Shown here one piece after another: positions 1,701-4,907 of a stretch of 4,907 nucleotides of DNA. This DNA is from a virus. Its lineage: Duplodnaviria; Heunggongvirae; Uroviricota; Caudoviricetes. The position numbers and the translations under genes were made by a program. Numbering within the stretch: the first letter of the stretch is position 1; every line of letters begins with the position of its first letter. The stretch lies in the IMG/VR virus record IMGVR_UViG_2695420585_000010. One strand, given 5' to 3'. The notes under the pieces were generated by a model that ran no database searches, was not told where the DNA came from, and saw only the letters and a list, made by a program, of their open reading frames with translations.

Positions 1701-2738
1701 GGTGCAGCACGTACCGGAAAAAGAAGCCATTGTGGATAACGGGGCCAGCTTTGAGCCGCAGTCAGGCACCCTGAACAGCGTTATTCCACCGGCTGTGCAG
1801 CACCTGACGGTGGAGGTGAGCGCGGCTGACGGTCAGTATCTGGCACAGGCGAAATGGGACACGCCGCGGGTGGTGAAGGGTGTGCGCTTCAGTCTGCGCC
1901 TGACCAACGGAAGCGGAGAAGACAGCCGTCTGGTGACCACCGCCATCACTGCGGATACAGAGCATCGTTTCAGTGGTCTGCCTCTCGGGGAATACACCCT
2001 GACGGTCAGGGCGATTAACAGCTATGGCCAGCAGGGCGAACCGGCCACCACCACGTTCAGGATTAATGCACCTGCGGTACCCGCCACGATTGAGCTGACA
2101 CCGGGCTATTTTCAGATAACAGCGGTCCCGCGTCTTGCGGTGTATGACCCGACGGTACAGTTTGAGTTCTGGTTTTCGGAGACAAAAATCGCAGACATAT
2201 CTCAGGTGGAAACCTCTGCCCGTTATCTGGGGACCGGCAGTCAGTGGAGTGTATCCGGCCCGCACATTAAGCCCGGGAAGGATTTCTGGTTTTACGTGCG
2301 CAGCGTCAACCTGGTGGGCAAGTCTGCGTTTGTGGAAGCCAGTGGCCGGGCCAGCAATGATGCAGAAGGGTATCTGGGGCTGTTTCGGGAAAAAATAGGA
2401 AAACTGCATCTGGCTCAGGGGCTGTGGGAGCTGATAGACAACAGCCAGCTTGCGGATGAGATGGCGGAGATGAAGACCACCATCACCGAAACCCGCAATG
2501 AAATCACACAGACGGTCAGTAAAACGCTGGAAGACCAGAGCGCCACCATTCAGCAGATACAGCGCGTGCAGAAGGACACAAATGATGACCTGGCTGCGCT
2601 GTACATGCTGAAGGTTCAAAAAACGAAAGACGGCATTCCCTATGTGGCCGGGATTGGTGCAGGGATTGAGGATACTGATGGCCAGCCACTGAGCAACATA
2701 CTGCTGCTGGCTGACCGTATCGCGATGATAAATCCGGA
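1701..2738 (+). repeat. Copy 2 of the shared ~1038-bp J block (variant allele)
   Basis: Aligns base-for-base in register with 662-1699 and 2934-3971; carries the allele-B substitutions. Confidence 0.85.
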
Positions 2739-2810
2739 GAACGGCAACAGCACGCCGTTATTTGTGGCGCAGGGGAATCAGCTGTTCATGAACGACGTGT
2801 TCCTGAAGCG
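1701..2810 (+). CDS. J: Partial fragment of host-specificity protein J (allele B), open at both ends
   Basis: Open frame with codons starting at 1702 ([22 protein letters not shown]... to ...[11 protein letters not shown]). Differs from the 394-1699 and 2822-4644 copies by mostly synonymous substitutions plus a cluster of replacements at 2182-2280. The GTG at 1702 used by the ORF track is not a credible start, because it sits immediately after an N junction inside J-homologous sequence. Confidence 0.65.
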
Positions 2811-2821
2811 NNNNNNNNNNN
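2811..2821. other. Run of 11 N: scaffold gap or junction between J fragments
   Basis: Left flank ends ...gtgttcctgaagcg (equivalent to 4034-4043); right flank restarts at atggtgtggagacatacgg (equivalent to 550 onward). This is a backward jump of about 1.2 kb, not a simple unsequenced gap. The frame happens to be preserved, which creates the artefactual 980-aa ORF. Confidence 0.85.
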
Positions 2822-4644
2822 ATGGTGTGGAGACATACGGTGTGTGGGGACTCTCCCTGCCGTCACTGCGTCGTCGCCTGTTCCGCTGTGTCTCCATCCG
2901 GGAAAACACGGACGGCACCTTTGCCATCACGGCGGTGCAGCACGTACCGGAAAAAGAAGCCATCGTGGATAACGGGGCCAGCTTTGAGCCGCAGTCAGGC
3001 ACCCTGAACAGCGTTATTCCACCGGCAGTGCAGCACCTGACGGTGGAGGTGAGCGCGGCTGACGGTCAGTATCTGGCACAGGCGAAATGGGACACGCCGC
3101 GGGTGGTGAAGGGTGTGCGCTTCAGTCTGCGCCTGACCAGCGGAAGCGGAGAAGACAGCCGTCTGGTGACCACCGCCATCACTGCGGATACAGAGCATCG
3201 TTTCAGTGGTCTGCCGCTCGGGGAATACACCCTGACAGTCAGGGCAATTAACAGTTATGGCCAGCAGGGCGAACCGGCCACCACCACGTTCAGGATTAAT
3301 GCACCTGCGGTACCCGCCACGATTGAGCTGACACCGGGCTATTTTCAGATAACAGCGGTCCCGCGTCTTGCGGTGTATGACCCGACGGTACAGTTTGAAT
3401 TCTGGTTTTCGGAGGCAAAAATCGCAGACACCGCACAGGTGGAAACCGCTGCCCGTTATCTGGGGACCGGCAGCCAGTGGAGCGTCTCCGGCAGCCGGAT
3501 TAAGCCGGGGACGGATTTCTGGTTTTACGTGCGCAGCGTCAACCTGGTGGGGAAATCTGCTTTTGTGGAAGCCAGTGGCCGGGCCAGCAATGATGCAGAA
3601 GGGTATCTGGGGCTGTTTCGGGAAAAAATAGGAAAACTGCATCTGGCTCAGGGGCTGTGGGAGCTGATAGACAACAGCCAGCTTGCGGATGAGATGGCGG
3701 AGATGAAGACCACCATCACCGAAACCCGCAATGAAATCACACAGACGGTCAGTAAAACGCTGGAAGACCAGAGCGCCACCATTCAGCAGATACAGCGCGT
3801 GCAGAAGGACACAAATGATGACCTGGCTGCGCTGTACATGCTGAAGGTTCAAAAAACGAAAGACGGCATTCCCTATGTGGCCGGGATTGGTGCAGGGATT
3901 GAGGATACTGATGGCCAGCCACTGAGCAACATACTGCTGCTGGCTGACCGTATCGCGATGATAAATCCGGAGAACGGCAACAGCACGCCGTTATTTGTGG
4001 CGCAGGGGAATCAGCTGTTCATGAACGACGTGTTCCTGAAGCGGCTGTTTGCGGTGAGTATCACCTCGTCCGGCAATCCCCCGACGTTTTCCCTGACGCC
4101 GGAGGGCAGGCTGACCGCAAGAAATGCTGATATCAGCGGTAACGTGAATGCGAATTCCGGGACGCTCAACAACGTCACGATTAACGAGAACTGTCGGGTT
4201 CTGGGAAAACTGTCCGCGAACCAGATTGAAGGCGATCTCGTTAAAACAGTGGGCAAAGCTTTCCCCCGGGATTCCCGTGCACCGGAGCGGTGGCCATCAG
4301 GGACCATTACCGTCAGGGTTTATGACGATCAGCCGTTTGACCGGCAAATTGTTATTCCGGCGGTGGCATTCAGCGGCGCTAAACATGAGAGAGAGCATAC
4401 TGATATTTACTCCTCATGCCGTCTGATAGTGCGGAAAAACGGTGCTGAAATTTATAACCGTACCGCGCTGGATAATACGCTGATTTACAGTGGCGTTATT
4501 GATATGCCTGCCGGTCACGGTCACATGACGCTGGAGTTTTCGGTGTCAGCATGGCTGGTAAATAACTGGTATCCCACAGCAAGTATCAGCGATTTGCTGG
4601 TTGTGGTGATGAAGAAAGCCACCGCAGGCATCAGTATCAGCTGA
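2822..4644 (+). CDS. J: 3' portion of tail-tip host-specificity protein J (central tail fibre), about 607 codons with native stop; true start lies upstream of the window
   Basis: Long open frame (codons from 2824) ending at TGA 4642-4644 (...[14 protein letters not shown]). Contains two FN3-like segments (about 3019-3590, e.g. [18 protein letters not shown] and [16 protein letters not shown]), a Pro/Gly-poor helical segment (about 3643-3865) and a C-terminal domain. Sits immediately upstream of lom, as in phage lambda. This is the only copy that continues colinearly to the gene end. Confidence 0.85.
2934..3971 (+). repeat. Copy 3 of the shared ~1038-bp J block (within the colinear J 3' portion)
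   Basis: Aligns in register with 662-1699 (one difference noted by eye) and with 1701-2738 (allele-B differences). Confidence 0.85.
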
Positions 4645-4662
4645 ATTTTATAACCCATATAC

Positions 4663-4690
4663 GGGCGCCAGAAATGGCGCCTTTTTTATT
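4663..4690 (+). terminator. Rho-independent (intrinsic) terminator downstream of J
   Basis: Perfect GC-rich stem GGCGCC (4664-4669) pairing with GGCGCC (4676-4681), 6-nt loop AGAAAT, followed directly by TTTTTT (4682-4687). Located 19 nt after the J stop codon. Confidence 0.7.
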
Positions 4691-4700
4691 GCAGAAAAGC

Positions 4701-4706
4701 GAGAGG
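4701..4706 (+). promoter_or_regulatory. Shine-Dalgarno sequence for lom
   Basis: GAGAGG with a 5-nt spacer before the ATG at 4712. Confidence 0.6.
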
Positions 4707-4711
4707 TAATT

Positions 4712-4907
4712 ATGCGTAGACTTTATGCCGCCATTTTGTCCGCAGCCATTTGTCTGGCCGTATCCGGTGCGCCTGCATGGGCGTCTGAACATCAGTCCAC
4801 GCTGAGCGCGGGGTATCTTCATGTCTCGACGAACGTTCCTGGCAGCGATAATCTTAACGGGATTAACGTGAAATACCGTTATGAATTCACGGACACGCTG
4901 GGGCTGG
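4712..4907 (+). CDS. lom: Outer membrane protein Lom (Ail/Lom/PagC family beta-barrel), 5' portion; continues past the window end
   Basis: ATG at 4712 with a good RBS; translation MRRLYAAILSAAICLAVSGAPAWASEHQSTLSAGYLHVSTNVPGSDNLNGINVKYRYEFTDTLGL. This has a typical signal peptide (predicted cleavage after AWA) and closely resembles my recollection of the lambda Lom N-terminus. Position immediately downstream of J matches lambda. Not in the ORF track because no stop codon falls in the window. Confidence 0.9.
   Translation, partial: MRRLYAAILSAAICLAVSGAPAWASEHQSTLSAGYLHVSTNVPGSDNLNGINVKYRYEFTDTLGL

Follow-up and report, generated by a model that had tools for sequence, protein, structure and literature searches.

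A short tract in the second FNIII domain of tail-tip gene J, very probably swapped between alleles of different lambdoid prophages

[quoted passage not shown] Among the lambdoid prophages of EHEC, which recombine, the morphogenetic genes are near-identical (Asadulghani et al., 2009; PMC2669165). Lambdoid mosaicism in pathogenic E. coli is already known, and the case described here is an ordinary one; a literature search on J-specific mosaicism and cryptic-prophage recombination found no work directly on FNIII-2 variation. Our locus is similar to inter-prophage recombination in EHEC (e.g. the Sp prophages of O157 Sakai; PMC2669165) in that co-resident lambdoid prophages carry long identical stretches broken by short divergent islands. 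In contrast to the kilobase-scale exchanges around stx genes in the EHEC study, the tract considered here measures 20-160 nt and lies within one domain of J.

Two J alleles in four overlapping fragments

The window, by which we mean the whole 4,907-nt stretch of DNA that was analyzed, is divided by Ns at 393, 1700 and 2811-2821 into four overlapping fragments (A, B, C and D, all on the plus strand) of a gene that is the lambdoid tail-tip gene J, encoding the tip attachment or host specificity protein. The translation of 2824-4641, in fragment D, matched Ig_J (PF24421), Ig_J_second (PF24489), Phage_Tail_Tip (PF09327) and Ig_GpJ_C (PF12421), all above the Pfam cut-offs and with E-values from 4.8e-42 to 1.7e-23; the allele in fragment C matched Ig_J, Ig_J_second and Phage_Tail_Tip, again above the cut-offs. 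Fragment D aligned with lambda gpJ (8iyk_J) over lambda residues 552-1131 (E = 1.4e-210). Similar to lambda gpJ (PDB 8IYK, 8K35, 8XCI and 9E7M), the domains follow the order Ig_J, Ig_J_second, tail-tip fibre and C-terminal receptor-binding Ig, identity over both FNIII domains is about 66%, and lom follows J. Unlike lambda gpJ, which has 1132 aa, the protein has 1157-1158 aa in the closest finished genome, the receptor-binding domain of these pathogenic-E. coli prophage alleles is divergent, and J is present in the window only as overlapping fragments. In place of a single continuous ORF of ~1130-1160 aa, the window holds four N-separated pieces with out-of-frame junctions, and in relatives J is a single ORF of 3471-3528 nt. 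We attribute the broken frame to concatenation of draft contigs, not to biology.

The neighbourhood of the gene in the window consists of J followed by lom only. In the closest finished-genome relatives (loci L082 and L083), tail proteins L, K (a C40 peptidase) and I precede J, lom and a side-fibre gene, and the annotated products around both loci fit the lambda order of tape measure, M, L, K, I, J, lom and side fibre; the tape-measure gene and the tail-protein genes that follow it lay inside the fetched stretch for L082 only. The J stop codon is at 4642-4644. A GC-rich terminator-like hairpin (GGGCGCC..GGCGCC, plus strand) lies 19 nt past this stop and before lom, at 4663-4682 with a T-run to 4687, and resembles an intrinsic terminator that would separate lom from the late tail operon. 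The 5' part of lom (4712-4907, plus strand; ORF start MRRLYAAILSAAICLAVSGAPAWA) corresponds to Ail/Lom outer-membrane protein annotations under the finished-genome matches. The closest finished genomes are those of Shiga-toxin-type E. coli O45:H2, O103:H2, O26, O145 and O157, with up to 14-16 J-like places per genome; over all finished E. coli genomes, J places number ~10,000.

Fragment A (1-392, with the single N at 393 next) is a piece of the C-type allele and overlaps fragment C, whereas fragment B (394-1699, with the N at 1700 next) is a piece of the D-type allele that reaches ~156 nt further upstream than D. Fragment C (1701-2810, followed by 11 Ns at 2811-2821) carries the C-type allele, with both FNIII domains and the beginning of the helical shaft and central fibre. 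Fragment D, as an N-bounded stretch, spans 2822-4907; its J part (2822-4644) is the 3' 60% of the D-type allele, with FNIII-1, FNIII-2, shaft, central fibre and receptor-binding domain up to the stop codon. In ungapped comparisons, A and C had no difference over the 303 positions of their overlap (1701-2003), A and B had three differences, and B and D had one in 1150 nt (868 vs. 3140). At the sites that separate the alleles, A and C fell on one side, and B and D on the other.

All four fragments align to overlapping parts of one gene, and the block was present once in every related natural locus examined. For example, fragment B aligns to 2232-3537 of locus L011, overlapping the footprint of D there, and bases 2935-4041 of D are identical to L011 (1107 nt). 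Neither A|B nor B|C is joined in frame; C|D is, by chance, which gives a spurious 980-aa ORF (1702-4644). The window is thus a set of concatenated draft contigs joined by Ns, holding two J alleles, each broken into two pieces. The 'copies' of the first-pass annotation are not repeats within a real gene, and a real tandem duplication, or an array of three or four copies, was rejected on the same grounds: N-separated overlapping fragments, out-of-frame junctions, and relatives with a single block. A wider caution follows for draft assemblies, in which 'tandem J copies' can be concatenated repeat contigs. We infer that a single Shiga-toxin-type E. coli draft genome is the most likely source of both alleles, each from a different prophage; the window, being a concatenation of fragments, does not itself show where the alleles lie, and does not prove that they belong to one genome.

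Two side observations concern the fragments themselves. Fragment C starts at 1701 with VQHVPEKE and fragment D at 2822 with GVETYGVW, and proteins listed as 'host specificity protein J, partial' in NCBI draft E. coli assemblies, on contigs of ~1.0-1.1 kb, repeatedly begin with the same residues. Both starts look like recurrent assembly-graph break points in J, and they fit with concatenated short-read repeat contigs. The one base that differs between B and D is part of an Asn codon (AAC) at 868 in B, as at 296 in A and 1907 in C, and of a Ser codon (AGC) at 3140 in D, Ser being the majority state at the equivalent position (42 of 46 related alleles). The difference could stem from a third J copy in the source genome or from a consensus of collapsed repeat reads.

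Divergence and exchange of the replacement patch

Between fragments C (1701-2810) and D (2934-4043), 27 of 1110 bases differ in an ungapped comparison, and 26 of 1038 differ between C and B (662-1699). Sixteen of the 27 differences lie within 2182-2279, a clustering within any 98-nt window that was reached by none of 100,000 random placements. This patch exists as two haplotypes on the plus strand: a common, C-type one (2182-2280) and a rarer, D-type one that is identical in fragments B (1143-1241) and D (3415-3513). The first-pass annotation had located the homologous stretches correctly and had counted seven replacements within 33 codons, a number that translation reproduced exactly (T/A, I/T, S/A, S/A, P/S, H/R and K/T, for C and for B and D, respectively). 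Its description of the surroundings also held: 10 of the 11 C-D differences outside the patch leave the amino acid unchanged, and the copies, called identical downstream of about 2340, last differ at 2328 and then agree throughout 2329-2810. Upstream, 2023-2165 is likewise free of differences. Three codons of the patch differ at two to three positions each.

The base changes in the patch are of mixed type, as had been noted from the sequence, and 9 of the 16 involve no adenine in either allele. Tail protein domains of phages are a classic setting for diversity-generating retroelements, and the confinement of variation to such a domain would fit targeted hypermutation of the FNIII-2 loops by one of these elements or something similar. 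We find that explanation scarcely credible, given changes that are not adenine-specific and variants that form a few discrete shared cassettes rather than a cloud. The window held no template repeat besides the allelic fragments, and the annotations of the stretches (8-14 kb) retrieved for the two J loci of a finished O45:H2 genome list no reverse transcriptase.

The polymorphism is real and not a sequencing error, since each haplotype turns up again in independent finished E. coli genomes. A 201-nt query around the D patch (3373-3573) found 14 finished genomes with 100% identity, among them O103:H2 12009 and O45:H2 FWSEC0003, and the C patch region was 99-99.5% identical in 69 finished E. coli genome records. 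An artefact, whether an error of sequencing or a chimeric consensus built from collapsed repeat reads, might be suspected in a stitched window with Ns and out-of-frame junctions, for a multi-copy gene whose database entries in this region are often ~1 kb 'partial J' contigs, but it is very improbable in view of these matches: the C patch is also base-identical in four IMG/VR loci, D equals L011 over 1107 nt, and both frames are open.

We compared C with D by region using Nei-Gojobori estimates. Upstream of the patch, dS was 0.061 and dN was 0.003 (dN/dS = 0.05); downstream, dS was 0.025 and dN was 0 (dN/dS = 0). Within the patch, dS rose to 0.379 and dN to 0.127 (dN/dS = 0.33), so that synonymous divergence is 6-15 times that of the flanks. 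Similarly, of the 14 differences with no effect on the amino acid, the patch, at 9% of the length, has 4 (p = 0.03). Because dS is raised as well as dN, and because codons differ at several positions, the patch tract has a much older common ancestor than its flanks. The flanks, with pS of 0.03-0.06 between C and D, are far below the population mean piS of 0.17-0.21, so the backbone was shared recently. This pattern is unlike that of recent adaptive point mutation. Synonymous divergence ought to be checked in this way before any local cluster of replacements is called positive selection.

Evidence for recombination was widespread among 46 distinct related J alleles, our population sample from IMG/VR loci (numbered with an L prefix). 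When allele D was used to scan IMG/VR again, essentially the same 80 loci came up and only one was new, so the sample was not enlarged. The PHI statistic was z = −26.6 (0 of 1000 permutations), and the Hudson-Kaplan minimum over 1107 nt was Rmin = 56; several of the obligate recombination intervals fell within the patch and next to it. A triplet test of the 3SEQ kind resolved allele C into a backbone like that of D and a tract at 2166-2328 like that of L010 and L015 (0 of 20,000 permutations), and the informative sites with C as child and D plus L010 or L015 as parents gave a clean pattern, PPPPP q(18) P(16). The tract is thus flanked by breakpoints, as a mosaic origin had been expected to require, and 2166-2328 (plus strand) is the largest extent that separates C from D, in that no C/D differences occur in 2023-2165 or 2329-2810.

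The C patch is nucleotide-identical in L010, L015, L027 and L031, whose flanks differ from C at 10-20 positions upstream and at 18-35 positions downstream. Conversely, L012 and L002 carry the upstream sequence of D (one difference) together with a C-type patch. A complete D-type patch was found among the sampled alleles only in L011, itself identical to D, and partial donors were L021 for its 5' cassette and L055, L049 and L056 for its 3' cassette. As to the direction of transfer, a single event would suffice if C was the recipient, and at least two events or an unsampled donor would be needed if D was. At the 3' edge of the tract, positions 2319 and 2322 are C and G in allele C, as in L056 only, and G and A in nearly all other alleles, including L010 and L015. 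The tract in allele C may have come from an unsampled donor, or it may have gained private synonymous changes at this edge.

Judged from the sequences, the patch itself is composed of at least two short cassettes that occur in differing combinations. The 5' cassette (2182-2202, plus strand; T/A, I/T and S/A) covers the C-C' loop and the start of a short helix, and the 3' cassette (2260-2279, plus strand; PH..K in C vs. SR..T in D) lies in the E-F loop. Across the 46 alleles, the 5' cassette has at least three main states, TKIADIS/TS, AKIADTA and KRITNTA, the third of which is present in nine alleles. Its D-type state (G...CCGA) is common to L021 and, in part, to L047, L044 and L052. The D-type state of the 3' cassette (AGC CGG ... 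ACG) is common to L055, L049 and L056, whose flanks differ, and the triplet test placed this tract at 2260-2322 (0 of 20,000). A table of variable sites for the 46 alleles showed linked variant blocks in many combinations on various backbones.

Finished genome O45:H2 FWSEC0003 carries both types in two single-copy J genes ~450 kb apart: one has a D patch without mismatches, and the other a C-like patch with two. The D-like J is 3474 nt and the C-like J, in another prophage, is 3477 nt; each sits in a lambda-type tail-gene neighbourhood. The two genes differ in the patch, in a few other islands and in the receptor-binding domain, and elsewhere have long stretches with 0-1 differences per 100 nt. 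At L082 (9924-12539; NZ_CP031916.1, O45:H2), the side tail-fibre gene past the D-like J and lom is broken by an IS66-family element (ISCro1), with the espK type III effector gene next, and the L082 prophage is probably defective for side fibres.

We therefore consider it highly probable that the patch is a short mosaic tract swapped between J alleles of different lambdoid prophages, produced by recombination rather than by any demonstrated positive selection. The two alleles would share a near-identical backbone through recent homologous exchange between co-resident or co-infecting lambdoid phages, and a tract of ~100-160 nt (from 2166/2182 to 2279/2328) would have a separate and much older ancestry. 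Such a tract would be a short gene-conversion segment of at least two mini-cassettes, reshuffled across E. coli prophages at the conserved sequences between them. Conserved spacers lie at 2203-2214, 2216-2240 and 2280-2318. The molecular route would presumably be homologous recombination between prophages, of the RecA or phage Red/RecET type. On this reading, the window is a clean small-scale example of lambdoid prophages in the same host swapping pieces of a tail gene, with conversion tracts in J that can span no more than a few tens of bases and that mostly come to light in the loops of an FN3 domain.

FNIII-2 loops and selective constraint

The assignment of the patch to the second FN3-like domain of J, made at first from the letters alone, was corroborated by the Pfam match, lambda gpJ and a structure model. 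In allele C, PF24489 (Ig_J_second) matched residues 126-227 of the 1702-2809 translation, which places FNIII-2 at 2077-2382 (plus strand). In the alignment with lambda J, the patch falls at FNIII-2 residues ~752-785, and the seven replaced residues are equivalent to 752, 757, 758, 763, 778, 779 and 784. AlphaFold2 modelled 1762-2400 (mean pLDDT 86) as two seven-strand sandwiches, the second with strands at 109-116, 118-124, 133-139, 154-159, 162-165, 174-182 and 191-198. Foldseek ranked lambda gpJ first (8iyk_F, TMq 0.79) and then listed numerous tandem FN3 pairs (E ~1e-7), in agreement with a fibronectin type III fold.

In the model, replaced residues 141, 146, 147 and 152 are predicted to lie in the loop and short helix that connect strands 133-139 and 154-159 (the C-C' connection), and residues 167, 168 and 173 in the loop ahead of strand 174-182 (the E-F connection). 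None of the seven is placed in a β-strand, so that mapping the patch onto an FN3 model, as had been suggested, points to loops or a short helix throughout. From standard FN3 topology, we take the C-C' and E-F loops to be at the pole that bears the C-terminus of FNIII-2, both presumably facing the α-helical shaft. Loops of FNIII-2 would tolerate substitutions better than the β-strand core, and old divergence would thus surface there as a cluster of replacements. By analogy with the tube-closing role of FNIII-2 in lambda, these loops may face structural rather than ligand-binding constraints.

The first-pass annotation had read the cluster as mosaic recombination and/or diversifying selection; the first part is borne out by the raised dS, the shared cassettes, PHI, Rmin and the triplet test, and the second is not, since dN/dS stays below 1. 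With Rmin = 56, selection methods that assume a single tree are invalid, and we approximated a site-wise analysis by Nei-Gojobori windows and a tree-free minimum-spanning count per codon. Across the 46 alleles, piN/piS was 0.50-0.64 in the patch vs. 0.11 in the flanks, and the piN of the patch (0.066-0.083) was the highest replacement diversity in the block. By the tree-free count, dN/dS was 0.36 in the patch as a whole, 0.60 in codons 160-171 and 0.16-0.20 elsewhere. In 26 full-length J alleles, the patch was the local piN maximum upstream of the central fibre, well under the receptor-binding domain (0.11 vs. 0.2-0.3). The expectation of an elevated ratio thus holds relative to the flanks (0.33-0.50 vs. 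0.05-0.20; a replacement/synonymous diversity ratio ~2-4 times theirs) but not relative to neutrality: the estimates were 0.33 for the pair, 0.50 from piN/piS and 0.36 from the tree-free count, and the patch was significantly below neutral (p = 0.0009).

Under positive selection on exposed FNIII-2 loops, point mutations would have built up the replacement cluster in situ, for example through altered weak glycan binding or escape from host defence. This account can draw on the raised piN/piS and tree-free ratios, on the local piN maximum in full-length J, on the loop positions of all replaced residues, and on codons 160 and 165, which have three to four amino-acid states each (very small counts, with two replacement and no synonymous changes at 160, and three and two at 165). 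It is also in keeping with the proposal, as Fraser et al. (2006) are cited in PMC10721106, that Ig-like domains of phages bind surface carbohydrates weakly. We nevertheless judge it unlikely. Ratios were below 1 everywhere, replacements were only marginally enriched in the patch over the rest of the block (Fisher p = 0.06), and a 6-15-fold rise in synonymous divergence is not accounted for by selection on amino acids. Three codons have two to three changes each, and whole cassettes are shared with other alleles. Under exchange of an old tract, which we prefer, the patch is under weaker constraint than its flanks; diversifying selection at a few codons (160 and 165) has room but is not demonstrated, and selection may help to keep the patch variants.

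The FNIII-2 of J resembles the Ig-like/FN3 accessory domains of phages, in so far as Fraser et al. (2006) are represented in PMC10721106, in its FN3 fold outside the tail structure and its loop-located variation, and differs from them in that carbohydrate binding by its loops is only putative, by analogy. A more speculative possibility, which we hold to be distinctly unlikely, is that the C-C' and E-F cassettes constitute a second modular specificity surface of J, which might bind O-antigen or LPS glycans weakly or tune the opening of the FNIII-2 trimer after receptor binding, with balancing selection keeping alternative cassettes in the E. coli prophage pool and gene conversion spreading them in very short tracts.

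Two further features of the block were recorded. Long antisense ORFs (285-348 aa) lie opposite J on the minus strand at 723-1769, 1762-2619 and 2995-3852; the one at 1762-2619 was considered as a gene and rejected as non-coding, with internal stops in 13 of the 46 alleles and piN/piS of 1.82. Just past FNIII-2, in the linker to the helical shaft, 2338-2385 is a dimorphic cassette of 12 linked nucleotide sites, one form of which reads EVSGQPSNDGEGYLEFF. Its two forms split the 46 alleles about evenly and assort independently of the patch, and both alleles of the window carry the same form.
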